DNA from: a phage
Strand: one strand, 5' to 3'
Sequence record: PZ338878.1
DNA: 64,000 nt
Shown here: positions 16,512-34,240 of the stretch, piece by piece
How the letters are laid out: each line of letters opens with the position of its first letter
Position numbering within the stretch: the stretch's first letter is position 1
Notes under the pieces: generated by a model
Seen by the model: the letters and a program-made list of their open reading frames with translations, nothing else
What the model was told of the DNA's origin: nothing
Database searches by the model: none
Position numbers and translations under genes: made by a program

Positions 16512-16513
16512 TT

Positions 16514-16669: not shown

Positions 16670-16680
16670 TTTCTTCCCCT

Positions 16681-16872: not shown

Positions 16873-16884
16873 AATACCCTCCAT

Positions 16885-16909
16885 ATAAATAAAGGAGGCT
16901 TTCGCCTCC
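16885..16909 (-). terminator. intrinsic terminator after ATPase gene
   Basis: ggaggc-tttc-gcctcc hairpin followed by UUUAUUU on the minus strand. Confidence 0.55.
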
Positions 16910-16918
16910 TTTTATCAC

Positions 16919-18079
16919 TTAGTAAGAACGACCACCAAACACATACTCTGTGTAGTTTTTACGTTCTTTGTTTTTAATAACAACTTCAATGTTGTTACCT
17001 TTATCATCGGTGAACATAAAGTGATAACCGTCACCACCCATTGTACGAATGTGTTTTTCATCATACGTTAGCAAGATACGGTCTACACCCCAGTAGTAGT
17101 CACCTTCTTCATCTTTATCTTCTACGGTAACAATCCCTTCCATTTCAGGAAGATGCTCTTCTCCTGACTTATGATCTACAGCTACAACATAACGATTACC
17201 GCTAAACAAACCTTGTGCTGTCATACCGTCAATATCGGTATCTGACGAAACATCTGCTGTACGATCTACACCATTAACTTTCAGAAGTTTAACTTCTTTT
17301 GCAGCATAGCGGTGTTCAGTAATACTGATACCCATTAATGCAAGTGCATCAGAGAATTTGTCATTAGGATAACGGTTAAGTTCTTCTACTAATGATTGAA
17401 CAATATCAAAGTTCAAATCCACGGAGAGATTATAAAGCGTTTCAAAATCTGGTAAGAAGGCTTTGTTCTCCAGATTTTTAGCCAGATAATCATCCATAGT
17501 AGCTTTAGGTAGTTTCTTATAGCTAAAACTGTAGAAAATACGGCTAGGACGATTACGCAAAAATTCTGATACATAACCATCATTTTTAGTCAATACAAAC
17601 AGCTTGTCATAACCACCAACACCATCCAGCAGGGTAAGCAAACCATCTTGTGCATCTTTTTCAGCATACAGTTTATCAAATTCATCGATCATAATCATCA
17701 CAGGTTGTGTGATTTTAGACATAAAGTTGATAAAGCCTTCACCATTAAAAGCACTACCGATAGAAATAGTAGGAATACCCATTTCACGAAGAGCAGAAGA
17801 CAGCATTTTAGCTTGCAAAGTTTTACCGCTACCTTTCGTACCCTCAAGGAGAACACCTGTGTTTTTACCTTTGCGGCTAAGGAACGTCTTGATAATACGT
17901 TCTGATTTATCATCAGTATCACCGTATGTTACTGAAGGTACTTCCATATCATTTTTAGGATACAGGAAGAACTCACCACTTTGAGTAACACCTACACCAA
18001 AAGTTCCTGCTGGAATTTCTTCAATATCTGTACCAGACTTCTGACGCAGGAAGATTTGATTGCCGAATACTGTAAACAT
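16919..18079 (-). CDS. P-loop ATPase (AAA-like), paralog of 33096..34223
   Basis: 386 aa; Walker A GTKGSGKT, Walker B VMIMIDEFDK, LLTLLDG; roughly half the residues identical to the plus-strand paralog over the first 250 aa (by eye). Confidence 0.6.
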   Translation of the reverse strand: MFTVFGNQIFLRQKSGTDIEEIPAGTFGVGVTQSGEFFLYPKNDMEVPSVTYGDTDDKSERIIKTFLSRKGKNTGVLLEGTKGSGKTLQAKMLSSALREMGIPTISIGSAFNGEGFINFMSKITQPVMIMIDEFDKLYAEKDAQDGLLTLLDGVGGYDKLFVLTKNDGYVSEFLRNRPSRIFYSFSYKKLPKATMDDYLAKNLENKAFLPDFETLYNLSVDLNFDIVQSLVEELNRYPNDKFSDALALMGISITEHRYAAKEVKLLKVNGVDRTADVSSDTDIDGMTAQGLFSGNRYVVAVDHKSGEEHLPEMEGIVTVEDKDEEGDYYWGVDRILLTYDEKHIRTMGGDGYHFMFTDDKGNNIEVVIKNKERKNYTEYVFGGRSY

Positions 18080-18099
18080 AGTTTTCTCCTCTATTTAAT

Positions 18100-18570
18100 T
18101 TAGTCAGATTCCCAAATGTTGTCTTTCTTAACCCACATTCGTTGATTATCTGAACCTCTATAACGTTTCGTTGTTGGTTGATTCATATCATACTTACCAT
18201 CTATCACTATGTCAACCAGTTTTTTAATTTTTTCTGGAATTTCTTCAAAAAGATATCCTGTATATAAGACAATATCTTTTTTGTTTCCAAAACAATCTCT
18301 TACCTTCTCAAGAACATACTCTACAGTGTCAATGTTCTCTTTGTCAAGAGGTTCACCACCTAAAACTGTTAATCCTTTAATGAAAGGTCGAGATAAATCT
18401 TCCAAGATAAGATCTAATGTTTCAACAGTGAACTCTTGTCCGTAATTATACGACCAGGCTTTCTGGTTAAAGCAGCCACGGCAACCGTGGCTACAACCGC
18501 TCACCCACAAAGAGCATCTTACACCGTCACCGTTGAGCATGTCAACAGGTTCATATCCGGCGTAATTCAA
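18100..18570 (-). CDS. nrdG: anaerobic ribonucleotide reductase activating protein (radical SAM)
   Basis: 156 aa; CSHGCRGC is a CxxxCxxC cluster; 4-nt overlap with nrdD. Confidence 0.85.
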   Translation of the reverse strand: MNYAGYEPVDMLNGDGVRCSLWVSGCSHGCRGCFNQKAWSYNYGQEFTVETLDLILEDLSRPFIKGLTVLGGEPLDKENIDTVEYVLEKVRDCFGNKKDIVLYTGYLFEEIPEKIKKLVDIVIDGKYDMNQPTTKRYRGSDNQRMWVKKDNIWESD

Positions 18571-20366
18571 AAATGTTTCTCCCTTTCTAGTACCTCTTGC
18601 ATTTTACCTTTGTTATAAGGGCGAGAGTTAGGGGCAGAAAGGTATCCTGACACTCTTCTGATCACAGATATGGATTCTTCTTCATGATTACCGCAACTTG
18701 GACACTCGAAGCCTTTAGCCGTTGCTTTAAATTCACCATGAAAACCACATTTGAAACACTGATCTACAGGTTGGTTCACGCCAAAATAAGGAATTTTATT
18801 GTAGGCATAATCTACAAGAGTTTCCAGTGCTTGCAAGTTATTTTTAAGGTTTGGTGTTTCTACATAACCTATGTTCCCACCATTACTAATTTGTGCAAAA
18901 CCTTCCTCATAATCCCATTTTTGGAACGGGGTAGTGTGCATCCATACAGGTTGATGGAAAGAGTTTGTCAAGTAGTCACGATCAATAGAACCAGGATAGC
19001 GATCATTTAATGCTTTGGCAAATTTATAGCACAAGGATTCTGCTGGTGTTCCATACAAACTAAAAGCTAAACCAGAACGTTCTTTAAATGTGCAACAGAT
19101 ATCCTTCATATATTGAAGGATGTTTTTACCCATTGCTTTTGGATTGGTGTTATTTGGGTATAAAATCTCCATAGCTTCTGCTAAACCTACATAACCGATA
19201 CTAATAGAGGCATAGCCACCTTCAAATAGTTTACCAATCTCTTCATTAGCTTCTAATCGAGCTAAAGCCCCTTCCATAAACAATGTAGGGTTTTGAGATG
19301 CTTTGGTATGTCTAATACGGTTAACACGTAGCATATGTGCCTTATACGCCATCTCCATATGTTGTTCCAACAGTTCAGTAAATAAGATGCCCTTTTCACG
19401 GGACTCTGCTGCAATGATAGGTAAGTTTAAAGAAACTACGCCTAAGTTGAAACGACCATCATATTTTTCACCTTGCTCTGTTGCATAGTATGACAAGAAA
19501 CTACGGCAACCCATGCTTGTGACGCGACCATCTGAAGATCCTGTAACTTCTTTGTTTAAAGGTACAGAGATAAAATCAGGATAAATGCGTTCAGCACAAC
19601 ACTCCATTGCCAGTTGCTTCAAATCATAGTTTGGATCACCAGCTTTCATGTTAACACCATCTTCCAAGAAGAAGATAACTTTAGGAAACACAGGAGTTAC
19701 CCTATCTTTTCCTAATCCTTGTTTGTGCACCATTAGGTAGTTTTTAGTGATCATTCTACCAAAAGCAGAGGTATCCAAACCTAAACTAATTGTTATAAAA
19801 GGTGACTGACCATTTACACTCATTAGGGTGTTCACCTGGTAGATTAAAGTTTGCATTGCATCATAGACCTGTTTATCTACCATACGCATAGCAATATCAT
19901 AATCGCCAACATCGGCATATATTTTATTAAAACTTGCTTTAACGTATTGACTAAGCCCAGTATCAATATGTGCACAAGTTTGTCCACCATATTGGCTAGA
20001 AGCTACTGCTTGAATAATTTGAGTTAGAACAGTAGTTGCTACACCGATAGATTTTGGTTTTTCAATATGTGCATTACCAATACGGAAACCGTTCTCAAGC
20101 ATATCTTGGTAATTTACCAGGCAACAATTAGTTAAAGGTGAGAGTAAATAATCTAAATCGTGAATGTGACCATACCCGCTTTTATGCCATTCTGCTAGAT
20201 CTTCCGGTAAAATATGGGTCATTGCCATGTGCTTGCTCAGGATACCTGCTAGTAAGTCTCGGTGAGTATTAACAATCATTGCAGGTTTGTTTGCATTTTC
20301 ACGAGTAAATTCTTCGGATGTTTGTTCGAGGAATCCGATTACATCCTCATATAGTTTTTGGGTCAT
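18567..20366 (-). CDS. nrdD: anaerobic ribonucleoside-triphosphate reductase (class III)
   Basis: Trimmed in frame to ATG 20366 (GGAGGA upstream); C-terminal zinc ribbon CFKCG...CPSCG and glycyl-radical motif RVSGY. Confidence 0.85.
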   Translation of the reverse strand: MTQKLYEDVIGFLEQTSEEFTRENANKPAMIVNTHRDLLAGILSKHMAMTHILPEDLAEWHKSGYGHIHDLDYLLSPLTNCCLVNYQDMLENGFRIGNAHIEKPKSIGVATTVLTQIIQAVASSQYGGQTCAHIDTGLSQYVKASFNKIYADVGDYDIAMRMVDKQVYDAMQTLIYQVNTLMSVNGQSPFITISLGLDTSAFGRMITKNYLMVHKQGLGKDRVTPVFPKVIFFLEDGVNMKAGDPNYDLKQLAMECCAERIYPDFISVPLNKEVTGSSDGRVTSMGCRSFLSYYATEQGEKYDGRFNLGVVSLNLPIIAAESREKGILFTELLEQHMEMAYKAHMLRVNRIRHTKASQNPTLFMEGALARLEANEEIGKLFEGGYASISIGYVGLAEAMEILYPNNTNPKAMGKNILQYMKDICCTFKERSGLAFSLYGTPAESLCYKFAKALNDRYPGSIDRDYLTNSFHQPVWMHTTPFQKWDYEEGFAQISNGGNIGYVETPNLKNNLQALETLVDYAYNKIPYFGVNQPVDQCFKCGFHGEFKATAKGFECPSCGNHEEESISVIRRVSGYLSAPNSRPYNKGKMQEVLEREKHF

Positions 20367-20379
20367 TAATCCTCCGTGG

Positions 20380-20406
20380 AAAATAAAAGCCAGCATTAAG
20401 CTGGCT
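20380..20406 (-). terminator. intrinsic terminator upstream of nrdD
   Basis: agccagc-attaa-gctggct hairpin followed by UUUUAUUU on the minus strand. Confidence 0.55.
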
Positions 20407-20455
20407 TTAGGGTGGATCTTTATTTTAAATCTTTTTCGTAAGATTGTCCTTGATC

Positions 20456-21406
20456 TTAGTCAAGGTTTTTGGTAATACGTGTACAACCATCAGAAGTCAA
20501 ACCGTCAACTTGAGTTTCCCAAGTACCATGAATATTTCGGAACAATGTTGTTACACCTTTTGGTTCATTAATAATGATTGCCATAACAAGTTTAGGATCG
20601 ATAACAGACATAATCTTTTCCTCAATACCCTCTGTAATAACATTATTGCGCACAATATTAATTGCATCTTCTTGTACAGTAAGAACACTTACGTTCTTAA
20701 GAGTATATACCTGCTGTGTAGTGTAAATGATACGAACATAACTTACAGAACGAGTAGGCACAGGTTTACGCGGTCGGCGAAAACGTGGTTTTGGTGAAGA
20801 TTCAGTTTTACTTTCATCTTTTGAATAATACTCCTCAAACAGTTTAGTAAATGTTTTTACATCAACTACAAACCGATCTTTCCGATATGGAGAATTCTTA
20901 TGTGCACCATTAATACCACTGTTTTCATCGAAGAAAGTAATGTTTTCTTCAGTTGAATACATTAGATAATGATCTGCATTTTTCCAATGTGGTTGTGGAC
21001 AACGAGGATTACAAACTGAAAGCAGATAACTAATATCTTCTTCCGTGGCATCAGTATCCAGGAAACACGTATTATGCACAGTCAGTTGTACTTTTTCAGC
21101 CATATCTTTTTCTTTATCCTCATTAGCAAGATATTCAGTACGAATAATTTCCAGAAAACCTTCAGGTGTTACTTCCATAAATGTATATTCAGGATGAAGT
21201 TCCATATATTCAAATCCACAACCATCTAACTGCTGTAGAAAGTTAGGGTAGAAGAACAAATCATTAACACTGTGAATCAGATCATTGATTTCTGCTTCAG
21301 TTGTGTAGCCAAAACTCTTGTGAATTGCTTCGTTAAGAATATGCAGGATACCCATCTCTTCTGCTGCTTTTTTAACTTCCAGTTTATTAGCGTAAAATGC
21401 AATCAT
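20456..21406 (-). CDS. hypothetical protein (316 aa)
   Basis: ORF track; no motif. Confidence 0.45.
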   Translation of the reverse strand: MIAFYANKLEVKKAAEEMGILHILNEAIHKSFGYTTEAEINDLIHSVNDLFFYPNFLQQLDGCGFEYMELHPEYTFMEVTPEGFLEIIRTEYLANEDKEKDMAEKVQLTVHNTCFLDTDATEEDISYLLSVCNPRCPQPHWKNADHYLMYSTEENITFFDENSGINGAHKNSPYRKDRFVVDVKTFTKLFEEYYSKDESKTESSPKPRFRRPRKPVPTRSVSYVRIIYTTQQVYTLKNVSVLTVQEDAINIVRNNVITEGIEEKIMSVIDPKLVMAIIINEPKGVTTLFRNIHGTWETQVDGLTSDGCTRITKNLD

Positions 21407-21423
21407 TATGTTCTCCTTCTAAA

Positions 21424-21858
21424 TTAGTTTAAAATTTCTTTTGCAATGGTAGAAGCAAGTTTTCCATCATATTGATTCGGATACTCTGCTTTAAGGTGTT
21501 TCATCATATCTGGCATTTTCTTGCCTGTCAAGGCAAATTCTTCAGCAATAGCTCGAAGATCATCTTCAGATAGCATTTCTGGTAAATATTTTTCCAGAGT
21601 GGTGATATCACGCATAGCTCGCTCACACTTGCTAAGGGAAGCATTAACTTTCTTAAGTGAGTCTAGTTCCTCTTTAGCGTGTGCAATACCAATCTTAACA
21701 ATGTTAATCATAATATCGTCTTCTGATTTGTTTAGATTTGCCTTTTGAGTACGAGCAAGGTCAAACTCACCAATAATATTAGTTAACAAAGCAAAAGCAC
21801 CCTTATCGGTTGTACGTGCTAAGATACGATCTGCTTTCATTTGTGTCACAATAGACAT
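21424..21858 (-). CDS. GatB/YqeY-domain protein
   Basis: 144 aa; LEKYLPEMLSEDDLRAIAEEF...MPDMMKHLKAEYPNQYDGKLASTIAKEIL matches the YqeY C-terminal helices. Confidence 0.55.
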   Translation of the reverse strand: MSIVTQMKADRILARTTDKGAFALLTNIIGEFDLARTQKANLNKSEDDIMINIVKIGIAHAKEELDSLKKVNASLSKCERAMRDITTLEKYLPEMLSEDDLRAIAEEFALTGKKMPDMMKHLKAEYPNQYDGKLASTIAKEILN

Positions 21859-21870
21859 TCTATTCTCCTC

Positions 21871-22443
21871 TTATTTGCTAATGCTTTGAATTTTATTTAC
21901 AACACGGTTTATTGCCAGTGAAGCCCTAGGCTCTGCAATACCTGTTGCATAGATATAAGGATGACCTTTTGGAGACTCCCTCATACCGAATGAACCTAAT
22001 TCTAAACCATATTCATCCTCTACGTCAACCCCAATATTAGTGGGTACTAAATATGTTTTAACTCCATAATAAGTAGAGAAGAAACAGCGCATAGCGTTAG
22101 CATACTCTTCAATTGTAGCATCAGGGTAGAACTCAATCAACTCCAATTTCAAGAAAATATTAAAATGAGTATCATCTAAATTTTCTTCTGTACGGTAACA
22201 TGGTGTTAGTGCCATATACGGATTACCTGCTGCAAATTCAAAACCATCCTTCTCCATTTGCAGGAAAGATTGTTCTGCACTAGCTACATAGTATTTACCG
22301 TTAGGATGCCCTAATGGGCGATCCTCTTTATTTTCTGGTAATGTGTACGCCAGTATATCAGCATCCACGAGATATGGAACTTCTAACATTTGTGCAAATC
22401 GACCATAGTAATCAATAGCTTGAGCTATTACTGCAACATTCAT
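21871..22443 (-). CDS. hypothetical protein with class II aminoacyl-tRNA-synthetase-like motif 2 (tentative)
   Basis: 190 aa; CYRTEENLDDTHFNIFLKLELIEFY resembles class II motif 2; too short for a complete synthetase core. Confidence 0.25.
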   Translation of the reverse strand: MNVAVIAQAIDYYGRFAQMLEVPYLVDADILAYTLPENKEDRPLGHPNGKYYVASAEQSFLQMEKDGFEFAAGNPYMALTPCYRTEENLDDTHFNIFLKLELIEFYPDATIEEYANAMRCFFSTYYGVKTYLVPTNIGVDVEDEYGLELGSFGMRESPKGHPYIYATGIAEPRASLAINRVVNKIQSISK

Positions 22444-22691
22444 GATCGACCTCCGCTGCGGAATGCACGTTTAGTAATGTTTGACATAGTGATCAAATCT
22501 TGAAGCGTCATATCAGGAAAATGCTGTTCAAGAACACCTTCAACAGCGCCTACAATATCTGATAACTCAATAAGTTGCATCAGCTTGCAATCTTGATCAA
22601 TAGCATCTTGAAGTTCATAAAGCTCTTCTTGAATCTTAGCAACAGAACCATATTCCTCTTTACTAATCTCCTTCAAATGATACCCTGCCAC
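22440..22691 (-). CDS. MazG-like nucleotide pyrophosphohydrolase (small)
   Basis: 83 aa; IQEELYELQDAI and ELSDIVGAVEGVLEQ acidic helix pair. Confidence 0.45.
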   Translation of the reverse strand: MAGYHLKEISKEEYGSVAKIQEELYELQDAIDQDCKLMQLIELSDIVGAVEGVLEQHFPDMTLQDLITMSNITKRAFRSGGRS

Positions 22692-22701
22692 TTTAACCCC
22701 C

Positions 22702-25476
22702 TTAGTTTACCAGTTTATTTATGTCTGGTAAAAGATTTATTTCACCTAAAAAATCACCTTCACCTTCCTCTAGCCAACTCTCATATGCTTGTGCATGATT
22801 ATAGTTACCATCAAAAGAATCTGCAACAAATTTTTCTACAGTTTTTCGAGATGTGCCAGCGCCAAATACACCAAGTTTAATACCATTGATCGGTAAAGTA
22901 GGGCTTGTTGGTACTTTCTCTGTTGCAACACGGTTGATATCTATAATCTCTTGTACAGTTGTATTCCATTGTAAGCATTTAACACAACGGGTATGCGCTA
23001 CATACAGTAAGTTTCGCTCTGCCTCTTCTAGTCCTACCCATTCACCAGTCTTTTTATCATAGTTGGAAGGAAAATCATTAGCAACAATAACCTGATCCCA
23101 CTCCAAACCTTTAGACTTATGTGCTGTAGTCAGTGTGACTTTTGCTGTAGGAGAATTTCTATGCGTTCTAAGTGTATGTGCTATAGTGTTTGCCTTGCCA
23201 GAAACTACGATGTTTAACAAGCGTTTAGCATCTGGATCAGCCTCTGCACACTCAACAAATTCATTCCAGTCTGCGTAAGGTAATACAGTTTCATGTTTTA
23301 CTTTCTCAATATCCCCTCTCCGAAGAGCATTAACACTATCCACCATAGAGATAAAATCCCTGGTATCTACGTTAATAATAATTTCTTCCCCATCTGCAAT
23401 ACGATCCATTGCCTCCATAAGCAAGGTTAAATTCTTGCGAAAGATGATAGTGTAAGGTTTTGTATAGTCTACAACATCTGATTTGTAGCTACCTACTACA
23501 GTATCAAAGCCTTTACCAACCAAAGGATGACGCAAAGGTTCTTTATCACTTAAAATCATATTCGCAATGTTTGCCACTTTGGGGCCAAAACGGAAGCAAG
23601 CAGTTAATGGAAGCTCTGCCCCATACTTAGCTGTTTCAATCATCATATTAGAGCTACCTCTAAATTGATAAATGCAGTTGTGGCTAAGAATTTCATTGCC
23701 AAAAAAGTTAGCAGTATCTTCTACTTCAATATCATAATAGATACCCTCACTATCTACAATGTCCACAATCTCTTCTGCCGTTACAGTATCACCATCTTTT
23801 ACTAACACAGACATGCCTTTAAACAAACCCGCTGCCGGAATTAAATTATATTTGGGAGTGTTCACAGAGGACATGCATTCTTTTAAAGATGCAAACGGAA
23901 CTATTTCAAGGATCTTTTGTGCAAAACTCAATGCTTCACGATAAGAATTGAAATATTTACGTACACGGTAACGACCTTCCAATTTAGCAACACTTACGCT
24001 TACACCTGCTTCAATGAGTGAGGCATAGATTGGCATTTCACTTTCTGTCCACTCAAAGCTAACTTGTGTTCCTTTACAACCTTGTGCTCGCAAAGTCACT
24101 GTTAACATTTTTCTTGCATCTACTGCACAATTGATGCTGTGCCAATGTGGATAAGCAAAATGATAGTCTTTATCCTCTAAAAGTTTAAAACCATTTTGTC
24201 CGAATTGTTCAAAGATATTGTTGATCCTTTCTTGATTAATACCGCGTGAACTTGCTTCAAATACACAAGTAGGAATGCCATATTGTAAACTGTATGCCAT
24301 TTCTTTTTCCATAGCAGCTTCACGGTTTTCAACAATATCCAACACCCACAACTTCTGTGCTTTTTCAGAACGTGTACGTTGCCCCAGTTTAGAAAAACCT
24401 TCTTTATCATCGAATTTGTTAGTGATCCCTACTCGGAAACCTAAATCTTTTCTCCACATTAGGTATACCACCATCTGATCATCTTTCAGAACATAAGGTG
24501 AAGCCCAAATACGATGGTTATGTGTCATATCTAAAGTCTTACCTTTAGCAGTAATAATATTCCTACCTTTTGTACGTGTAGATAAAGTCTTATTTGTTAC
24601 TTTTCTAAATGTAACTTTACCGTTAGAATAAGACTCTACCTTATCACCGATTTGCAGGTCTTTCATTGTAACCTGACCATTTTCGGTATTAAGTACCGTG
24701 TTTTCTGACACACATTGGAATTCATCACCAACTACCACAATTTGTTTGGCAGATTTAGCATTCCGCAGAATAGACAAGAATGCAGGGTTAACATCCTGGA
24801 ATTCATCCCCAAAAATAATGTCATAACCAAGATCAGCACCAGACAATTCAAACAATTTTACATAGGTGTCATGCGTCATCAAAGTATCTGTGTTAGGATC
24901 AATGCGCTCTCGCCACAATTGTTTTGCATACTTAACTACTTCTGTAATTAGTTTGTGTTCGTTAATACCTTTTCTTTTAATATCTGCAAGATGTACACCA
25001 GGAAAATGTTTACGGCTGATAAAAGGATCATCCGAAAATTCAAACTTACCTACGGTTTGCTTGATCATTAAACCAATCATAGCACGAGTTAAAAGTGTTT
25101 TCCCTCGTTTATCAATAAGATTATTAATCTTAAATTTCTTTGCTATCTCACTACCTGTACCTGCAACGTTAACATACTGTCCTTCTGGTCGTGACAGTTT
25201 TGCACGTAAACGATGATCCAGGAATTGATAGCAAATGGAATGCAATGTACGGCATTCTACATTTGGTGGCATCTTACGCCGTGCTTCTTCTGCCATGCTT
25301 TTATTGAAAGCTAAGTAAAGAATGCGATCTTCTGTACTGTTAGCCAGCAAATAAAGTGTTGACGTTTTTCCTGATCCAGATTTAGCTTGGATAGTTAAAA
25401 ACCGATGATCTGGAAAAGCCTCCTTAATAGCTGTTTGCTCTTCTGTTGGAGTAAAACTCAACTCTTTCTTAGCCAT
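22702..25476 (-). CDS. UvrD/Rep-like superfamily 1 DNA helicase interrupted by an intein
   Basis: Trimmed in frame to ATG 25476 (GAGAGG upstream, abuts upstream stop); Walker A AKSGSGKT, motif II FGDEFQD, motif III split as VVVGDEFQ / intein / CIYQFRGS. Confidence 0.7.
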   Translation of the reverse strand: MAKKELSFTPTEEQTAIKEAFPDHRFLTIQAKSGSGKTSTLYLLANSTEDRILYLAFNKSMAEEARRKMPPNVECRTLHSICYQFLDHRLRAKLSRPEGQYVNVAGTGSEIAKKFKINNLIDKRGKTLLTRAMIGLMIKQTVGKFEFSDDPFISRKHFPGVHLADIKRKGINEHKLITEVVKYAKQLWRERIDPNTDTLMTHDTYVKLFELSGADLGYDIIFGDEFQDVNPAFLSILRNAKSAKQIVVVGDEFQCVSENTVLNTENGQVTMKDLQIGDKVESYSNGKVTFRKVTNKTLSTRTKGRNIITAKGKTLDMTHNHRIWASPYVLKDDQMVVYLMWRKDLGFRVGITNKFDDKEGFSKLGQRTRSEKAQKLWVLDIVENREAAMEKEMAYSLQYGIPTCVFEASSRGINQERINNIFEQFGQNGFKLLEDKDYHFAYPHWHSINCAVDARKMLTVTLRAQGCKGTQVSFEWTESEMPIYASLIEAGVSVSVAKLEGRYRVRKYFNSYREALSFAQKILEIVPFASLKECMSSVNTPKYNLIPAAGLFKGMSVLVKDGDTVTAEEIVDIVDSEGIYYDIEVEDTANFFGNEILSHNCIYQFRGSSNMMIETAKYGAELPLTACFRFGPKVANIANMILSDKEPLRHPLVGKGFDTVVGSYKSDVVDYTKPYTIIFRKNLTLLMEAMDRIADGEEIIINVDTRDFISMVDSVNALRRGDIEKVKHETVLPYADWNEFVECAEADPDAKRLLNIVVSGKANTIAHTLRTHRNSPTAKVTLTTAHKSKGLEWDQVIVANDFPSNYDKKTGEWVGLEEAERNLLYVAHTRCVKCLQWNTTVQEIIDINRVATEKVPTSPTLPINGIKLGVFGAGTSRKTVEKFVADSFDGNYNHAQAYESWLEEGEGDFLGEINLLPDINKLVN
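23677..24714 (-). mobile_element. intein (about 346 aa) inserted in helicase motif III
   Basis: Insert begins CVSENTVLNT (Cys1) and ends FFGNEILSHN followed by extein Cys; removal restores VGDEFQ-CIYQFRG; coordinates from residue counting, good to a few nt. Confidence 0.6.
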
Positions 25477-25477
25477 T

Positions 25478-25954
25478 TCAACCTCTCTTAATTTGTTTAA
25501 CAAGCATAGGAACAAAATCTCGTTTTAAAATTTGTTCAATAATATGATCAGGTAGCTGTTGGAAATTATAATTAAATGCTACTGTCTCACCTTTAGGTGT
25601 TTCTACCCGCACATATAGCATGTTACGAAGTTTATCCACTTGTGCTGTATATTCTAAACCACGTAATTGATGCATTGCAAACATCAAATCATCAGTTTCA
25701 GTTTGGAATCTATCCCTTGTTTGCATCAAGGATAAGGCAAAAGGTAGATTTTCCCTAAGAGCCACCTTCTTAGGCACTAATGAAGGGAAATACTCCCCAA
25801 TAACTTCCTGTGTAAGCTGAATACACTCTTTTTCAAGCTGGTTTTGTTCCTTGAGTTCACAAACACTTTTTTGTAAAGTGTTAACCTCTTTTTGCAAAGC
25901 TGCTAGTTGAGTATTTAACTTTCTTTTTTGATTACGACCAAAACGTTTAGACAT
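25478..25954 (-). CDS. hypothetical protein (158 aa)
   Basis: ORF track; no motif. Confidence 0.45.
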   Translation of the reverse strand: MSKRFGRNQKRKLNTQLAALQKEVNTLQKSVCELKEQNQLEKECIQLTQEVIGEYFPSLVPKKVALRENLPFALSLMQTRDRFQTETDDLMFAMHQLRGLEYTAQVDKLRNMLYVRVETPKGETVAFNYNFQQLPDHIIEQILKRDFVPMLVKQIKRG

Positions 25955-25962
25955 ATCTCCCC

Positions 25963-26478: not shown

Positions 26479-26499
26479 TATATTTTCCTTATTGGTTTA

Positions 26500-27229: not shown

Positions 27230-27230
27230 A

Positions 27231-27944: not shown

Positions 27945-27945
27945 T

Positions 27946-28428
27946 TTAACCACCCAATTGCAAATGTTTAGAAAGAACAATATCCCACTGATCACCACAA
28001 CCGTTATCTATGCGGAACATAATGTACGTATCATCTTCTTCTACAACATATAACACCTCATAGGAATTACAACAGCCTTCCCAATTTTTAACAGCCTCTG
28101 GTGTATCATGTGTAAAAATTTCATTACCATCATACGACCAAAACAAAGGGGTGAGGTTTTCGAAGGTCAGTGAAGTAGGGTTCACTTCATCTTTAACTGC
28201 TTCCTCATACTCCTTATGCGTTTGTACTGCTTTAGTTAGTGTACTCATGTCTATCTCCTTTTCTCCTTCTTGACTATGGAGGATAGCGAACTCTCTAAAC
28301 TCCACTTCACGCCATGTTTTTAAGTAGTGCTTTATAATTTTATCAACATCTGCCTGTTCAACATTACTTTTCAAGCAATAGTAATCATGGTCTTCGCCCA
28401 TTCTACCCCATATGCTATACCTTGTCAT
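27946..28428 (-). CDS. hypothetical protein (160 aa)
   Basis: ORF track; no motif. Confidence 0.4.
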   Translation of the reverse strand: MTRYSIWGRMGEDHDYYCLKSNVEQADVDKIIKHYLKTWREVEFREFAILHSQEGEKEIDMSTLTKAVQTHKEYEEAVKDEVNPTSLTFENLTPLFWSYDGNEIFTHDTPEAVKNWEGCCNSYEVLYVVEEDDTYIMFRIDNGCGDQWDIVLSKHLQLGG

Positions 28429-28696
28429 CTGATTGATCCTTTACATTGCTCTTGGTATACACAGGAATAACATCGTCGTGATCTTTATTACTTTCATCTG
28501 TTAAAGCCCAAAACAACTTACCTGCTGGATGTTTAAAGATGTAGGCAATAGGTTCCTCTTCCTGTGCTTCTTTGCTACGGATACCATCCCGCCAGGCAAG
28601 CCAAGTGTAGATCATCACTTCTTGACGTTCTTCTTCGTTAGGCCACATATGTGGTGGGAAGGTTTTATCAAACCATTGCTTAAATTCTTCGGTCAT
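28415..28696 (-). CDS. hypothetical protein (93 aa)
   Basis: ORF track; SD GGAG. Confidence 0.4.
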   Translation of the reverse strand: MTEEFKQWFDKTFPPHMWPNEEERQEVMIYTWLAWRDGIRSKEAQEEEPIAYIFKHPAGKLFWALTDESNKDHDDVIPVYTKSNVKDQSDDKV

Positions 28697-28706
28697 AATC
28701 TACTCC

Positions 28707-28871
28707 TTAACGTACAAAGTTAACCTCTGCTTCTTTCAGCTTTGACACTTCTACATAACCACCATGATCATCTTTAATCCATTCTTTTCCTTTACGGATG
28801 ATAACAGGGTATGTAGAGTGAGTAAGTTTAGGTACAGATCTTTTTGTTTTAGTGATAGAAATGTTTTGCAT
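28707..28871 (-). CDS. hypothetical small protein (54 aa)
   Basis: Manual translation MQNISITKTKRSVPKLTHSTYPVIIRKGKEW...; GGAGAC upstream; below the track length cutoff. Confidence 0.3.
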   Translation of the reverse strand: MQNISITKTKRSVPKLTHSTYPVIIRKGKEWIKDDHGGYVEVSKLKEAEVNFVR

Positions 28872-28931
28872 AGTAGTCTCCTTAGTAAATTTTACATAGA
28901 GTCTAGATTATTTAGTAGATAGAGTCAATAA

Positions 28932-29198
28932 CTAATTACTGTTAGATCTGTATTCTGTCTTCCATTCACAATGGTAAACTTCAACAGGTTCTAACTTCCA
29001 GTGTTCAGGAACTAATTCAGGGCAATATCTACAAAAGAGAAATAGATAGATAATTAAGACAGGTATTAAATAGTAAAATGGTATACGATCATAACCATAC
29101 TTACGAGATAACATGTAGACATATAGATAGGGTATAACAATTAATCCTATAACTATAAGTAAGAAGAGAAGTATAAACCTTAGTGTAGTAACATCCAT
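28932..29198 (-). CDS. membrane protein (88 aa)
   Basis: ORF track; two hydrophobic helices. Confidence 0.4.
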   Translation of the reverse strand: MDVTTLRFILLFLLIVIGLIVIPYLYVYMLSRKYGYDRIPFYYLIPVLIIYLFLFCRYCPELVPEHWKLEPVEVYHCEWKTEYRSNSN

Positions 29199-29269
29199 AG
29201 TATTCTCCTATACAGTAATATACTCTGTTCCTGCCCCTCCATGAGTGGCAGGAACAATATCTATAGAGA

Positions 29270-29330
29270 ATACTAACTCGCTTCGCTCGTCACCTTTCAG
29301 GTTTAGGGTAGCATGTTTTTCTGAAAAAGT
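29270..29330 (+). repeat. copy A of a dispersed conserved element (core TTAGGGTAGCATGTTTTT)
   Basis: Identical 18-mer at 29303-29320 and 56465-56483, with similar flanks (ctcgcttcgctcg ... gaaaaagtcaa). Confidence 0.5.
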
Positions 29331-29362
29331 CAATACTCTCCACAAAACTTTACAAAATACTT

Positions 29363-29635
29363 TTACATAGGTACAACAGAGTCTGTTTTGAAGTCGTACA
29401 TATGATTTACACCTGTGATTTTTGACATAGAGATTGCACGTTTAACACCTGCAATTACCTGGTCTGTCTTCTTAATCTCTTCACGGAACTTACGTACAGT
29501 TAGAGAGAAGAAACGATGATCCATCCATTGACGGTTAACACGATCACGTTTGAAGTGACGGAAATCTTCAATCTGTCTGTTACGCAAACGGCGCAGTACA
29601 TATAATAATTCATAGTAAGGGTGTTTATTTTTCAT
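29363..29635 (-). CDS. hypothetical basic protein (90 aa)
   Basis: ORF track; no motif. Confidence 0.4.
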   Translation of the reverse strand: MKNKHPYYELLYVLRRLRNRQIEDFRHFKRDRVNRQWMDHRFFSLTVRKFREEIKKTDQVIAGVKRAISMSKITGVNHMYDFKTDSVVPM

Positions 29636-29638
29636 AAT

Positions 29639-30067
29639 TTATTCTCCAAATCGAAAATCGTCAATATCATCAAACCATACACAATGGCGAGTCCTTTCTT
29701 TTTCTGTTGCAGACATTGTTTCAACAGCTTTAGGACTAAGCACAACAGGAATGTAACGAACAGGTCGTTCATAATAGTAGCCATACTTTTCTGTATTAGC
29801 TGCCTCAAAGACTTTACGGCGTTCTTCAAGATCTTCTATGGTGAATCCTACCATATAACCATCATGTTTGCTACCCCATCCTTCCTCACTTTCAACAATC
29901 GGGATATAAAAGCCGTTACGCGTCCCTGACGCTGGTTTTTCTTGAGCCTGAAGGCAAGCCTCCCATCCTGCTTTAAAGACGTTATAGAGCGATTTACGCA
30001 CGTTATGAGTGCCGCTTTCGCTTGCTGGATAGATTTCATTAAACTTGTCTTGGATTTGTTGTGTCAT
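29639..30067 (-). CDS. hypothetical protein (142 aa)
   Basis: ORF track; AAGGGGCGGG upstream. Confidence 0.4.
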   Translation of the reverse strand: MTQQIQDKFNEIYPASESGTHNVRKSLYNVFKAGWEACLQAQEKPASGTRNGFYIPIVESEEGWGSKHDGYMVGFTIEDLEERRKVFEAANTEKYGYYYERPVRYIPVVLSPKAVETMSATEKERTRHCVWFDDIDDFRFGE

Positions 30068-30210
30068 ACCCGCCCCTTAGTGATTATTTGACCAGCTAAA
30101 CAAATAGCTTGTAGTACAATAAAGAAGTAGCCTAATTTTACACTACCCAATACCCAGAATGCAATGTTTGCAAACAAACAAAAAGCAATATTAAGTCTAA
30201 AGAATAACAT
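30064..30210 (-). CDS. small membrane protein (48 aa)
   Basis: Manual translation MLFFRLNIAFCLFANIAFWVLGSVKLGYFF...; stop overlaps the downstream ATG. Confidence 0.3.
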   Translation of the reverse strand: MLFFRLNIAFCLFANIAFWVLGSVKLGYFFIVLQAICLAGQIITKGRV

Positions 30211-30411
30211 TTAATCCCCTTCATATTTAGGTAAAGGCATATATGCCACAATAGGAGGGTAATCAAAGTGAAAATGATGGTTCACCACAATAATCTTACC
30301 AGACATACTTTTATGCACTTCACAATACCCTTTTCCACCATCTTCCATTACCACCACATACTCACCTAGTGGGATATCGTATGGATCTTCTACTTTTACC
30401 CATTCTGTCAT
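30211..30411 (-). CDS. hypothetical protein (66 aa)
   Basis: Trimmed in frame to ATG 30411 (MTEWVKV), preceded by GAGGAG. Confidence 0.4.
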   Translation of the reverse strand: MTEWVKVEDPYDIPLGEYVVVMEDGGKGYCEVHKSMSGKIIVVNHHFHFDYPPIVAYMPLPKYEGD

Positions 30412-30575
30412 TTTGTAAACTCCTCGTAGTAAGGTAAAGCCTTGATCAGTTGTTCTGAAGTGCCATTTTGCACCCACGTAACACCATTGTCAACAGAAAC
30501 ATACCCTTTTTTGTCAATAAATTTACGCAGACAGCCAGTGAACTTATTTTTGTAGATAACCATCTTTACTCCTTG

Positions 30576-30929
30576 TTACATCCACAGGTTATGAAAATAC
30601 TTAGCAAATAAAATGCGACCTTCTAAACGATCTTGCCGCTGTTTTTCATTAACTTCTTCTGGTGGAGTTGAGTCCTTAAAAGAAGACTCCATTTTTTCAA
30701 GAATTTCTAACCAGTGTTCTGCTGCTCGTTCTTCCATATAAGGTAGATAGTCACCTTTAGCGTGTGGGTACATCCGACGAAGTAACCCACTAGGAATTTT
30801 AACATTGTTTGTGGCTATCACTTTTGCACGATACGCAGAAAGTGCATTGTAGATCAGTTTACTTAGTGTCACATCCAGATCAAGAAGATCACTCTCTTCA
30901 AATTGAATTTCATCGTGTACAATTTTCAT
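30576..30929 (-). CDS. hypothetical protein (117 aa)
   Basis: ORF track; no motif. Confidence 0.4.
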   Translation of the reverse strand: MKIVHDEIQFEESDLLDLDVTLSKLIYNALSAYRAKVIATNNVKIPSGLLRRMYPHAKGDYLPYMEERAAEHWLEILEKMESSFKDSTPPEEVNEKQRQDRLEGRILFAKYFHNLWM

Positions 30930-31213
30930 CGTGCCTTCTCCCGATCTGCATCTAATTTCAACAAGAAAGCTGTATACTCTTCCGAACCTTGGTGTAAAAA
31001 CATGTGATAAGAGCTTACCAGTTTCTTCGTTGTCGTATAACGTTCCATTTCCCCAACAACACCTCCACCTAGTGTGTAGAGCACAATACCTTCAACTCCA
31101 ACATAGTTTACTACTTCAACCAAGTCTGTGTTATCCCAATAGTAGTTAGGTGACACAATAAGATCGCCCACTGCCAGTTTAATGTTTGCTACTTCGTCTT
31201 GTGAATAATACAT
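30926..31213 (-). CDS. hypothetical protein (95 aa)
   Basis: ORF track; no motif. Confidence 0.4.
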   Translation of the reverse strand: MYYSQDEVANIKLAVGDLIVSPNYYWDNTDLVEVVNYVGVEGIVLYTLGGGVVGEMERYTTTKKLVSSYHMFLHQGSEEYTAFLLKLDADREKAR

Positions 31214-31225
31214 TTGGTTCTCCTC

Positions 31226-31519
31226 TCACATTAAGACACGTTTTGTGTTGATGGGTGCATTATCAAACATGTTAAGAACATTATCAAGCAGTTTTACTAA
31301 TTCATTTGTAATTTGTTCCCTTGAACGGGAGGAAGTGAGCACTTTGCTTTCACCAACAATATGCATAACTTTTATAGGAGCGTCTAAAATGATGTTGTGC
31401 TGATGATCCTCTTCAAAAGAAGCCAACCATTTCTCATTGTTACCGTGCAAGGCTACAATCACACCAAAACCGTTAATTGTTTCAGAAATATTCTTAGTTG
31501 CTAAAGTAATGTTCATCAT
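31226..31519 (-). CDS. hypothetical protein (97 aa)
   Basis: ORF track; first gene of the leftward operon. Confidence 0.4.
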   Translation of the reverse strand: MMNITLATKNISETINGFGVIVALHGNNEKWLASFEEDHQHNIILDAPIKVMHIVGESKVLTSSRSREQITNELVKLLDNVLNMFDNAPINTKRVLM

Positions 31520-31575
31520 CTACCTCTTTTGTTACGATACACACAGAGTACCAGAAACTAATTTCAGATCAAGTA

Positions 31576-31603
31576 TTGACATACTGTTTTATTGTGCTAA
31601 TCT
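31576..31603 (+). promoter_or_regulatory. sigma70-like promoter for rightward operon
   Basis: TTGACA, about 16 nt spacer, TAATCT, about 30 nt before the SD of the gene at 31636; sits in the divergent intergenic region. Confidence 0.45.
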
Positions 31604-31635
31604 TAATGCATACACAAATGAGAGGAGATAAACGA

Positions 31636-32187
31636 ATGCAAAACACCGATCTGACTTGGGTAGAAGCCAAAGAAGCAATGTTAAAAGGCAAACGTGTTAA
31701 ACATAAATACTTTTGCGAAGGGGAATGGTTTGAAATGCGTAACCGATCCCTTGTAGACGAAAAAGGAAATAACATGGAACAATGGTTCAAAAATGAAATT
31801 TGGCAGGGAACAGGTTGGTCTATAGTTGAAGATCAGCCTAGCTCAAGCGCACTGTTTAGCCCTATTATGTATCGCGTCATCGGTGCTTTAGTTGTTGATC
31901 ACGGAATTGCAGTGGAAAAAGAATGCTGGGAAGAGGTATCTTTTTTCAACCTGGCTTCTTATGCAAAAAGCCATATGCACTTGTTTGAAGAAGGTGATGA
32001 ATTTGTTCTTCGTATGCGATATGGCAAAGAATTCAGATTACCACTTGATAATGATGTAGACACTGTTGTAAAATGGTTAGCAGAGCATTATGCTTACGAT
32101 GCAATTTGTGGTCGCAGCTTCGGCAACGAACGCTGGGACATGATTTGTGAAAAATATGATTTTGAGCCGGAATACGGAGTTTTATAA
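31636..32187 (+). CDS. hypothetical protein (183 aa)
   Basis: Trimmed in frame to ATG 31636 (MQNTDL, GAGAGGAG upstream). Confidence 0.45.
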   Translation: MQNTDLTWVEAKEAMLKGKRVKHKYFCEGEWFEMRNRSLVDEKGNNMEQWFKNEIWQGTGWSIVEDQPSSSALFSPIMYRVIGALVVDHGIAVEKECWEEVSFFNLASYAKSHMHLFEEGDEFVLRMRYGKEFRLPLDNDVDTVVKWLAEHYAYDAICGRSFGNERWDMICEKYDFEPEYGVL

Positions 32188-32438
32188 TGTTAAGTATCAA
32201 ACCTAAAATGATAACAGCAGATGAAGCAGACTTTATTTTCAAATGTGGACGTGTATGGAGAGAATTCACAAAAGGGAATGAAGTGGTTGTTGTTGTCGAA
32301 CACAAGATATCTATCCAGGATCTGTTTGGACAATATGTTGATGTTATTAAATTAGGTATTGACAAGGGTTTAGTTGAGGTGTTAACATTAGATCAAGTTG
32401 AAGCAGAGCACCTCGATAAAGTGGTGGTTGAATTTTAA
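32187..32438 (+). CDS. hypothetical protein (83 aa)
   Basis: ORF track; no motif. Confidence 0.4.
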   Translation: MLSIKPKMITADEADFIFKCGRVWREFTKGNEVVVVVEHKISIQDLFGQYVDVIKLGIDKGLVEVLTLDQVEAEHLDKVVVEF

Positions 32439-32458
32439 AATACAGACGGGAGAAAGGT

Positions 32459-32632
32459 ATGAGTTTCTTTGTTACAGTATTTATGGCTATCTGGATTGTA
32501 GTCTCACTCGTTCTTTTCCTGGTGGGTTGTCTGGAAGAGATTAAGAAAGCGGTTATTTGCGGTTTCTTTGGTTTTATTATCTCTCCTGCCTGGATGTGGT
32601 TCTTCATTATGATTGGTTTCCTTAAAAGGTAA
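32459..32632 (+). CDS. small membrane protein (57 aa)
   Basis: Manual translation MSFFVTVFMAIWIVVSLVLFLVGCLEE...; GGGAGAAAGG upstream. Confidence 0.35.
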   Translation: MSFFVTVFMAIWIVVSLVLFLVGCLEEIKKAVICGFFGFIISPAWMWFFIMIGFLKR

Positions 32633-32646
32633 GTGAGGAATAAAGA

Positions 32647-33084
32647 ATGAGTAAAACAAACGCAATCGCAGATAAAGCAACGGATGTACTTCTGAACATG
32701 GTTAACGTCACTATTCAAACAATGAGTGATGTTGTGGAGTTTGGAAAACAACAAATTCCAGAAGTAATCCATCAATTATTAGTGTGGAAAGCAGTATCCG
32801 CAGGTTTATGGCAACTTTTTAGTATTTGCTTTATGCTTATTACTTTTATTGCTGTGCGGAACATCGTAAAAGCAATTAAAGATAAAGAATGCCTGTGGTC
32901 ACGAGATCGTTATGGTGAAGTATCTGCTTTACCTATTGTTGGTCTTGTTGTCTGTGCTTTCTTTTTCTTTTTAGGGTTTGTTATTTTCTTTTCGAATTTT
33001 GATTGGCTAAAAATCATTATTGCACCAAAAGTGTATCTGATTGAATTTGCTGCTGATTTAATTCGTTCATCTCAACAAAAATAA
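32647..33084 (+). CDS. membrane protein (145 aa)
   Basis: ORF track; several hydrophobic segments. Confidence 0.45.
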   Translation: MSKTNAIADKATDVLLNMVNVTIQTMSDVVEFGKQQIPEVIHQLLVWKAVSAGLWQLFSICFMLITFIAVRNIVKAIKDKECLWSRDRYGEVSALPIVGLVVCAFFFFLGFVIFFSNFDWLKIIIAPKVYLIEFAADLIRSSQQK

Positions 33085-33095
33085 AAGGGGTTAAA

Positions 33096-34223
33096 ATGAA
33101 ATACACGATTTATGGTGATATTGTAAGTGTAAATAAAGATATGGGCGTGGAATCTAACTACCTTCCACCTGGATTCTATACTGTTAGTCGTGATCCCCTT
33201 GGCAATTACTTTTTAAGCCGTGGTAATCTAACAGGTGTACCGGATGTTCTGTATGGTGAAACAGAAAAACGAGCAAATCACGTTATTCGTACATTCCATC
33301 GCCGTAGTGCACAAGGTAAAAACACAGGCTTGCTTCTGACAGGAACTAAGGGCAGTGGTAAAACTATGTTAGCCAAACTCATTAGTCGTGACCTTGTAGA
33401 AGAAGGTATTCCAACTATTATGGTTACTCAAGCCTACAGCGATGCTAATTTCATTGAACTTATTAGCAAGATCACCGACAAAGCAGTGATTATTTTTGAC
33501 GAGTTTGATAAAGTGTATGAGAAGAAACAAGATCAAGAAGCACTTCTCACTTTGTTAGATGGTACTGGCAGTGGTAATAAACTGTTTATTCTGACTAAAA
33601 ACAGTGGTTTTATCTCTGAATTCTTTTTAAATCGTCCTAGTCGTGTGTTTTATAATTTTAATTATGATAAAATCTCACTAGAAACTATGATTGACTACTT
33701 AGATAAAAACCTGGATAACAAAGCACACTTTGATAATTTCCAAAGACTTTGGGATGTAAGTTTAGAGTTGTCCTTTGATGTGATCCAAGGTATAGTAGAA
33801 GAACTTAATTTCTACCCTGATTTATCCTTTAAAGAATGCATCTCTATGATGGGCGTTTCTTTAGGTGGTGGTAATAAATGGGATATCAGCAGCGTTGTTA
33901 TTAATGGAAAACTTCAGAAAGTTAGCTGGGTATCTAGTTGGCATAACTTCACACCTGCAATCTTTTTAGGTGGTTCGTGCACACTAGACGTGTACTTGTC
34001 ATCTCCAAGTGATGCAGACTCTAAAGAAGCCCTTGCTAATAGCTCTTACGTGGTTTTTGATGATGAAGGAGATGCTCGAATTCCATTGAATGCGACAAAA
34101 ATGAAAGCAGATCTTATTACAGGCGGTAAAATCGTTGTGTTTAGTGACGATCCAGAAGATTCTTTCCGTATTGTTCTGGAACCAACTATCACCAATGGTG
34201 CAACTTTGGCAAGTGTGTTTTAA
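33096..34223 (+). CDS. P-loop ATPase (AAA-like), paralog of 16919..18079
   Basis: 375 aa; Walker A GTKGSGKT, Walker B VIIFDEFDK, LLTLLDG. Confidence 0.6.
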   Translation: MKYTIYGDIVSVNKDMGVESNYLPPGFYTVSRDPLGNYFLSRGNLTGVPDVLYGETEKRANHVIRTFHRRSAQGKNTGLLLTGTKGSGKTMLAKLISRDLVEEGIPTIMVTQAYSDANFIELISKITDKAVIIFDEFDKVYEKKQDQEALLTLLDGTGSGNKLFILTKNSGFISEFFLNRPSRVFYNFNYDKISLETMIDYLDKNLDNKAHFDNFQRLWDVSLELSFDVIQGIVEELNFYPDLSFKECISMMGVSLGGGNKWDISSVVINGKLQKVSWVSSWHNFTPAIFLGGSCTLDVYLSSPSDADSKEALANSSYVVFDDEGDARIPLNATKMKADLITGGKIVVFSDDPEDSFRIVLEPTITNGATLASVF

Positions 34224-34240
34224 GTAAGCTAGCAAATAAA

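Follow-up and report, generated by a model that had tools for sequence, protein, structure and literature searches.

Two diverged classical-clade AAA ATPases of a phi92-like phage belong to a large phage-specific family and may act as protein remodellers

Introduction

Why would a phage encode two related P-loop ATPases in separate units on opposite strands, and what might each of them do? The question is raised by a 64,000-nucleotide stretch of phage DNA (sequence record PZ338878.1; "the window" below refers to this stretch at its full length), in which one open reading frame (ORF) of 386 amino acids (aa), here called copy A, lies on the minus strand and a second of 375 aa, copy B, on the plus strand (Table 1). 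A preliminary description, made from the letters alone, had taken the two as duplicate ATPases with different C-terminal domains, suggestive of two specificities of one machine. Here, we describe the domain composition, evolutionary history and gene neighbourhoods of both proteins. Taken as a composite, our interpretation is that A and B are two classical-clade AAA proteins that would form rings and remodel proteins with two specificities, a reading to which we give a probability of roughly 0.6; its components differ in strength and are graded separately below.

Between positions 16000 and 36500, the window is 97-98% identical in megablast comparisons to phi92-like Escherichia phages such as JohannJBalmer and phi92, and by this measure it belongs to a phi92-like Justusliebigvirus (Stephanstirmvirinae). 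Copy A is the orthologue of phi92 gp190 and copy B that of phi92 gp221. Both are annotated in the phi92 RefSeq record as [quoted passage not shown], and in JohannJBalmer one of the two is labelled "hypothetical protein" and the other "FtsH-like protease". As annotated ATPase genes in dozens of phi92-like genomes, the pair is already known and ordinary as a finding; no study of the pair, or of the protein family PHROG 2376 to which both members belong, was found in the literature searched.

Results and discussion

Both copies are AAA proteins of the classical clade

Both ORFs were confirmed at the positions first given. Shine-Dalgarno sequences precede both (GAGGAG for A, AAGGGG for B), and no third copy of the family was found in the 64-kb window with tblastn. 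BLASTP aligned A and B with 119 identities over 254 aa (47%), 70% positives, 2 gaps and an E-value of 1e-81, which bears out the earlier estimate that about half of the residues are common over the first 250 aa; the motifs listed at that stage (GTKGSGKT, IPTI, DEFDK, LLTLLDG and NRPSR.FY.F.Y) are all present. Confinement of the similarity to generic Walker motifs, named at that stage as grounds for refutation, is not observed: the AAA alpha/beta subdomain is 56% identical, the lid 45% and the first 55 aa, a domain outside the ATPase module, 28%; the C-terminal domain is 19% identical.

In Pfam, only the generic AAA family PF00004 was matched, at 29.4 bits by A and 38.9 bits by B against a cut-off of 21.2, whereas PHROG 2376 covers both proteins almost from end to end: residues 1-376 of A (E 2e-104, profile positions 2-359 of 363) and residues 1-367 of B (E 7e-108, profile positions 1-357 of 363). 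Neither protein came near the cut-offs in NCBIfam or yielded a significant match in PADLOC and the other defence and counter-defence libraries. PDB sequence searches with the single proteins gave weak AAA matches only. When a family profile built from 89 members was run against all PDB sequences, the 60 best matches were exclusively AAA proteins of the classical clade (p97/Cdc48 D2 at 2e-13, VAT, NVL, AFG2, Rix7 and BCS1), and the alignment to p97 D2 runs from Walker A as far as the "RPGR" in the second region of homology.

Single-chain AlphaFold2 models of the full-length proteins (predicted local distance difference test, pLDDT, 88.9 for B and 84.7 for A) delineate the same architecture in both: an N-terminal five-stranded beta domain, a classical AAA module with a four-helix lid, a beta-rich C-terminal domain and a short tail. 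Foldseek placed BCS1, Rpt, NVL and FtsH at the top of the PDB matches to copy A; alignments to Rpt and Mpa extend past the AAA module, over 282-390 columns, although this is weak evidence. Thus, both profile searches and structure prediction, two of the checks proposed along with the original observation, assign the two copies to the classical AAA clade rather than to the HCLR, initiator or clamp-loader groups.

The catalytic apparatus appears intact. Positions invariant in the family comprise GxxGSGK(T), DEF(D/E)K, Q..LLTLLDG, the sensor-1 asparagine and N-R-P-x-R, and in B numbering G78, G83, G86, G88, K89, D135, E136, K139, N169, R180 and R183 are invariant in 89 sequences; Walker A (GTKGSGKT) and Walker B ((I/F)DEFD) show no variation in sets of 89 and 61 homologues. 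The second region of homology (LTKN ... NRPSR) supplies the sensor-1 asparagine and two arginines and aligns with the "RPGR" of p97 D2. Since Walker A, Walker B, the sensor-1 asparagine and both of these arginines are kept, both copies should bind and hydrolyse ATP, and they look catalytically competent and able to provide arginine fingers to a neighbouring subunit. In the loop aligned with pore loop 1 of p97 (W-F-G), an aromatic residue, F111 in A and Y114 in B, is conserved at 100% within each clade and falls under W551 of p97. The motif is non-canonical, F-N-G in A and Y-S-D in B, with the glycine kept only in A and most other family members. Judged from these residues and profiles, it is close to certain that A and B are homologous, classical-clade and active AAA proteins.

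The best sequence-profile and fold matches to A and B are BCS1, Rpt/PAN/Mpa, Msp1/ATAD1, spastin/Vps4 and p97 D2. Features common to the two copies and classical single-module AAA proteins are Walker A and B, the "LLxxLDG" helix, the sensor-1 asparagine, a two-arginine second region of homology (NRPSR versus RPGR), the four-helix lid and, at the position of pore loop 1, an aromatic residue. The beta-barrel that precedes the motor recalls the oligonucleotide/oligosaccharide-binding (OB) ring of PAN, Mpa and Rpt.

The C-terminal regions are one strongly diverged domain

The preliminary description had the two proteins diverge over the last 120 to 150 aa into different domains. The divergence is real, and BLAST detects no similarity between A and B in these regions. 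However, hhalign comparison of clade-specific C-domain alignments matched A to B over 98 columns (E 5e-5, 67% probability). An intermediate group of 368-aa proteins (P0024-P0029) connects them, with 96% probability to A (E 5e-9) and 94% to B in the same kind of comparison, and clustering of the C-terminal parts of 200 homologues put A and B in one transitive cluster. In the AlphaFold2 models, both C-domains begin with a long strand, which is followed by a short helix, another strand, a set of four strands and finally a terminal helix. Because the hhalign result, the end-to-end match to PHROG 2376, the clustering and the common order of predicted elements agree, the two C-terminal regions are, as aligned and modelled here, the same domain in strongly diverged forms and not different domains. 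In A, this domain is the fastest-evolving part of the protein, with a mean identity of 44% within the A clade. No credible Pfam match was obtained with the isolated N- and C-domains at E<=10.

Copy B is ancestral and copy A occupies a variable locus

Among the phage records listed, two copies per genome occur only in Justusliebigvirus and in Klebsiella phage phi1_175008; in addition, two metagenomic contigs (151,530 and 154,881 bp) are common to the lists of A-type and B-type matches. Copy A is seen only in genomes that also have B. The Phapecoctavirus phAPEC8 encodes one copy, 64.5% identical to B over the full length (compared to 47% between B and A), in the same operon as B, after orthologues of gp217 and gp218, and the single copy of Citrobacter phage Tr1 follows orthologues of gp218, gp219 and gp220. 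Copy B is the syntenic, ancestral copy across Stephanstirmvirinae.

Copy A, in contrast, is a one-gene indel at a variable locus, independent of the genes for the anaerobic ribonucleotide reductase, NrdD and NrdG (NrdDG), beside it. In phAPEC8, NrdG is followed directly by a small gp189-like gene and then by hydrolase and phosphoribosyltransferase (PRTase) genes, without A, whereas in Klebsiella phage phi1_175008 A lies between gp194-like and gp189-like genes and both NrdD and NrdG are absent; the independence of A from NrdDG follows from these two reciprocal arrangements. Within Stephanstirmvirinae, the gp194-like/gp189-like slot forms a hotspot at which genes are gained and lost, holding NrdD, NrdG and A in Justusliebigvirus, NrdD and NrdG in phAPEC8 and A alone in phi1_175008.

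In a neighbour-joining tree of 248 core columns with 100 bootstrap replicates, the A clade (100), the B clade (99) and the intermediate group (100) were each recovered; A joined the intermediate group in 91 replicates, A joined B in 0, and the three formed a group in 11. As A groups with the intermediate group and never with B, it is not a recent duplicate of B but, as far as the tree tells, an ancient paralogue or a lateral acquisition. The designation of the two as duplicate ATPases therefore does not hold: one is syntenic, and the other is an indel whose closest relatives are proteins of another phage group. The intermediate-group protein P0025 is encoded on a 154-kb contig with a different gene neighbourhood, and this group appears to be single-copy, judging only by the lack of matching contigs among the B-type matches.

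Two records of "Campylobacter phage A145/A150" (MG065645.1 and MG065639.1, host Campylobacter jejuni) contain A and B at 98-100% amino acid identity in genomes of equal size. They look like phi92-like coliphages of doubtful host assignment.

A large phage-specific family with a conserved aromatic tail

Copy B was compared exhaustively by phmmer with 1.84 billion representatives of 50%-identity clusters. At E<=1e-10 this retrieved 3,295 proteins and at E<=1e-30 it retrieved 1,083, nearly all of them 340-410 aa long and matched from the N-domain through the lid. Members were found in Stephanstirmvirinae; in jumbo phages of Serratia, Yersinia, Erwinia, Cronobacter and Pectobacterium; in Aeromonas Lahexavirus; in Salmonella 7-11-like, Acinetobacter and Proteus phages; in the Lactococcus 949 group and in Lactobacillus and Brochothrix phages; and in Herelleviridae (Bcp1, EF24C), Staphylococcus phage 6ec, Agrobacterium phage Atu_ph07 and crAss-like phages. 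Structure matches in BFVD are full length (380-430 columns) in many of the listed phages. PHROG 2376 is thus a large phage-specific AAA family with a fixed three-domain architecture, which A and B have in common with the other members annotated "ATPase", among them phAPEC8 gp252, Bcp1 gp221, EF24C ORF215, 6ec gp94 and crAss-like proteins along with phi92 gp190 and gp221 themselves. One copy is the rule in almost all phages; Justusliebigvirus and related phages of Klebsiella are the only ones in which two were observed.

The models predict a disordered extreme C-terminus (residues 368-375 of B have pLDDT < 50), and yet across homologues P0001-P0204 its pattern is conserved, with an aromatic end. 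Most members terminate in [YFW]-x-[YFW]-x-x-A-F, the B clade in (S/N)L(A/S)SVF or SFSKLF and the intermediate group in SLFRAW; in the A clade, Y-x-D-Y-A-F is extended by 3-6 residues, of which the last is usually tyrosine. A conserved aromatic tail of this kind resembles a docking peptide.

It is not out of the ordinary for one genome to hold a second family member, and the pair itself matters little. The interest lies mainly in the family, with its thousands of 50%-identity clusters across many phage groups and its conserved docking-type tail, for the function of which phi92 and the BASEL phages Bas62 (JohannJBalmer) and PaulScherrer, with their two diverged copies, offer a tractable system.

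Proposed function and alternative explanations

Given the placement in the classical clade, remodelling of proteins is a reasonable guess. Each protein would assemble into a ring, a hexamer or, as in BCS1, a heptamer, in which the conserved arginines would complete the ATP site of the neighbouring subunit. The conserved aromatic residue in the pore-loop-1-aligned loop would grip a protein substrate, which would be remodelled or unfolded through the central pore, and the fast-evolving N-domain, C-domain and tail would select the substrate or docking partner. These steps are derived from the properties of the classical AAA clade. The phage would thereby possess two ATP-driven remodellers of differing specificity, expressed from non-structural (early or middle) operons. 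Two specificities of one type of remodeller would predict a conserved motor and diverged peripheral domains, as seen here (56% identity in the motor against 28% in the N-domain and 19% in the C-domain). This most likely function, that A and B are remodellers with distinct targets, comes a little short of an even chance. The suggestion in the preliminary description of two specificities, in targeting or remodelling for example, therefore survives insofar as the two are true homologues with intact catalytic residues and a diverged periphery, but not in its premise of different C-terminal domains. Two members per genome with a conserved motor and diverged periphery are also found in Pex1/Pex6, Yta10/Yta12, FtsH/FtsHi and the archaeal PAN-A/PAN-B, paralogous pairs by which a motor acquires two specificities or forms a mixed ring; unlike those pairs, A and B are encoded in separate units on opposite strands, and A is closer to proteins of another phage lineage than to B.

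Several other explanations were weighed. A and B could be accessory ATPases of DNA replication, comparable to clamp-loader, Hda or DnaC-like loaders, with a tail that serves as a clamp-binding, SSB-tail-like or polymerase-binding peptide. Weak matches point this way, to PHROG clamp-loader and DnaC-like loader families (1e-8 to 1e-5) and to Hda, PRK08116 and IstB in NCBIfam (4e-7 to 5e-4), as does the label "DNA replication protein" that some sources give to some relatives. Members also reside in replication or recombination modules of crAss cr7_1 (primase ... ATPase-exonuclease) and 6ec (helicase, RNase H, RecJ, ATPase, resolvase), and the B-clade tails NLSLLY and SFSKLF loosely resemble the clamp-binding motif QL[SD]LF. 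However, the matches cover only the generic P-loop region and are far below the curated cut-offs (Hda 29.8 bits versus 194.8, IstB 19.9 versus 200), all 60 best PDB profile matches are to the classical clade, and the models lack the helical insertion specific to initiators, beta2 of B (107-110) passing through a short loop into alpha2 (117-125). As to clamp loaders in particular, PHROG 168 matches only the AAA core (E 1e-8 and 4e-5), the C-domain is beta-rich with no helical collar, and the "S-R-V/I" of NRPSR(V/I)F, reminiscent of the SRC motif, stands in a context that aligns with the classical second region of homology. The gene also lies outside the replication module in Stephanstirmvirinae, Bcp1, EF24C and Cronobacter phage 009. 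A replication role is accordingly unlikely, although it is the least unlikely of the alternatives. Somewhat less likely again is that A and B co-assemble into one mixed ring in the manner of Pex1/Pex6, Yta10/Yta12 or Rpt1-6, a single machine with two kinds of subunit, which would be compatible with remodelling. The elements at the subunit interface (both arginines and sensor 1) are identical in A and B, and A accompanies B in every phage record listed and on the two metagenomic contigs; yet B is the sole copy in Phapecoctavirus, in Citrobacter phage Tr1 and in almost every other phage, the proteins closest to A seem to be single-copy, and 15 kb separates the two genes, which lie on opposite strands and in different units, each closed by a hairpin.

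Also compatible with the remodeller model, and given a slim chance, is a counter-defence or host-takeover factor, with one or both copies dismantling a host complex, for example by TRIP13-like disassembly of the HORMA-type sensors of cyclic oligonucleotide-based antiphage signalling systems (CBASS) or by use of the tail to hand host proteins over to a host peptidase. A broader conjecture, improbable but slightly less so, is that PHROG 2376 constitutes a widespread, unrecognised class of phage unfoldases that dock by the C-terminal aromatic tail onto a host machine (a peptidase such as HslV/ClpP, or a replisome component) to destroy or remodel host or defence proteins, in which case Justusliebigvirus would have acquired A, its N- and C-domains re-tuned and its tail lengthened, for a second target. 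Functional coupling of A to NrdDG through co-transcription is very improbable: A follows NrdG by 20 nt inside a unit with a hairpin on each side, and in EF24C the family member lies four small genes upstream of nrd genes, but the link is contradicted by the relatives, with A in the same slot of phi1_175008 in the absence of NrdD and NrdG and NrdDG of phAPEC8 directly followed by the gp189-like gene. The chance that A and B are FtsH-like Zn metalloproteases is close to nil, notwithstanding the public labels in phi92 and JohannJBalmer and the presence of FtsH AAA modules, which belong to the same clade, among the structural matches. Unlike FtsH, both proteins are devoid of HExxH and of a transmembrane anchor, the N-terminus being modelled as a soluble five-stranded beta domain; neither Peptidase_M41 nor any other protease was matched in Pfam, even with the isolated C-domains at E<=10, and the C-domain is beta-rich, whereas the M41 protease is helical. 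At the sequence level the metalloprotease assignment is refuted.

Transcription units and gene neighbourhoods

The preliminary description had placed A at the head of a leftward block next to NrdDG. It is indeed adjacent to NrdG, but as the last gene of the NrdD-NrdG-A unit, which is flanked by hairpins (Table 1). Similarly, the order of genes given for B, in a rightward series before zinc-ribbon and NADAR genes, is correct, but a common operon with the zinc-ribbon gene is not borne out, as that gene lies past a terminator-like hairpin and itself looks like a homing-endonuclease-type insert; B ends an operon of two small soluble and two membrane proteins (orthologues of gp217 to gp220). The hairpins are matches to a consensus and no proof of termination, and shuffled sequence contains promoter-like sites at least as often. 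The two units are situated in non-structural regions with many small ORFs and nucleotide-metabolism genes.

Table 1. Positions in the window of the two ATPase genes, their domains and neighbouring features
Feature	Position	Strand	Residues	Basis or remark
Copy A	16919..18079	-	386 aa	N-domain, classical AAA module, C-terminal beta domain, aromatic tail
A, N-terminal five-stranded beta domain	17915..18079	-	1-55	AlphaFold strands E2-5, E8-11, E17-19, E26-31, E37-41
A, AAA alpha/beta subdomain and four-helix lid	17321..17914	-	56-253	Family-invariant motifs, p97 D2 profile alignment
A, Walker A GTKGSGKT	17819-17842	-	80-87	
A, Walker B DEFD		-	132-135	
A, sensor 1		-	N166	
A, second region of homology NRPSR	17540-17554	-	176-180	
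A, C-terminal beta-rich domain	16922..17320	-	254-386	hhalign, tail motif; ends ...YTEYVFGGRSY
A, extreme C-terminus	16922-16960	-		Disordered in model
Copy B	33096..34223	+	375 aa	Architecture as in A; syntenic copy across Stephanstirmvirinae
B, N-terminal five-stranded beta domain	33096..33260	+	1-55	AlphaFold strands E3-6, E9-12, E18-20, E27-32, E38-43
B, AAA alpha/beta subdomain and lid	33261..33863	+	56-256	Invariant columns, alignment to p97
B, Walker A	33342-33365	+	83-90	
B, Walker B		+	D135, E136	
B, sensor 1		+	N169	
B, second region of homology NRPSR	33630-33644	+	179-183	
B, C-terminal beta-rich domain	33864..34220	+	257-375	Model, hhalign, tail motif; ends ...ATLASVF
B, extreme C-terminus	34197-34220	+		Disordered in model
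Terminator-like hairpin after A	16891..16912	-		7 nt past stop codon; 9-bp stem, 5 G-C pairs, T-run
Terminator-like hairpin after B	34239..34260	+		16 nt past stop codon; 9-bp stem, 5 G-C pairs, T-run
NrdD	18567-20396	-	609 aa	Annotation; upstream of NrdG
NrdG	18100-18570	-		Annotation; 20 nt before A
Hairpin just upstream of NrdD	20386-20408			
gp194-like/gp189-like slot	16884-20456			L009 16795-19381; L013 2962-5392
gp217, gp218, gp219 and gp220 orthologues	31636..33084	+		Two small soluble and two membrane proteins; operon ending in B
Gene after B	34298-35695	+	465 aa	CapR-homology repeats, T5orf172
ADP-ribose/nucleotide-chemistry cluster, part downstream of A	14295-16529	-		
ADP-ribose/nucleotide-chemistry cluster, part after B	35696-36247	+		NADAR-domain protein
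UvrD/Rep helicase	22702-25515	-	937 aa	
"Hypothetical tRNA" of phi92 RefSeq	about 17350-17440	+		Antisense in gp190; L001 4352-4439

The genes upstream of B have BLASTP matches in phAPEC8 and Citrobacter phage Tr1 and are conserved within Stephanstirmvirinae only; no similarity was found by BLASTP to the corresponding genes in Bcp1, crAss cr7_1, Aeromonas 4_4572 and the intermediate-group contig. A gene of 120-160 aa before the ATPase was considered as a conserved partner and rejected, such genes being unrelated outside Stephanstirmvirinae. Elsewhere in the family, the neighbours are RtcB ligase (Cronobacter phage 009), primase and exonuclease (crAss cr7_1), RecJ, RNase H and resolvase (Staphylococcus phage 6ec), tRNAs and nrd genes (EF24C) and proteins of no known function (Bcp1, Aeromonas phage 4_4572), and no family-wide partner gene emerged across the neighbourhoods compared.

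The gene that follows B encodes five CapR-homology repeats (treble-clef zinc ribbons) and T5orf172, matches PHROG 681 ("endonuclease") and is probably a mobile gene of the homing-endonuclease type. It is annotated with 390-396 aa in JohannJBalmer and phi92, compared to the 465-aa ORF here, so that either translation starts further downstream or this phage has an extra repeat. The "exonuclease" after the crAss homologue had suggested a partner nuclease in this position, a candidate that was discarded given the homing-endonuclease-like composition and the location past the terminator-like hairpin. The NADAR gene comes next.

On both sides of the pair lie parts of an ADP-ribose/nucleotide-chemistry cluster: a HAD hydrolase, a ComF-like phosphoribosyltransferase (PRTase_3) and a macro-domain protein downstream of A, and the NADAR-domain protein two genes after B. 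The hydrolase/PRTase/macro-domain group is adjoined, according to the records of phi92 and phAPEC8, by a membrane protein of the TerC-like or tellurium-resistance kind.

The phi92 RefSeq record places a "hypothetical tRNA" antisense within gp190. ARAGORN and Rfam found no RNA gene in window positions 16500-18500, and this feature is probably an annotation artefact. The public labels are to be corrected in two respects: no FtsH-like protease is encoded by either gene, and the tRNA within gp190 is probably spurious.

Two further genes of the leftward region differ among relatives. The UvrD/Rep helicase ORF corresponds to a protein labelled in JohannJBalmer as an intein-containing precursor (intein of ~347 aa), and the UvrD of phAPEC8 is 530 aa long and without the intein. 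NrdD is an uninterrupted ORF both here and in JohannJBalmer; the phi92 record (L001 5568-7646) instead gives NrdD in two parts combined into a "spliced variant" and has ~250 bp of inserted sequence, possibly an intron.

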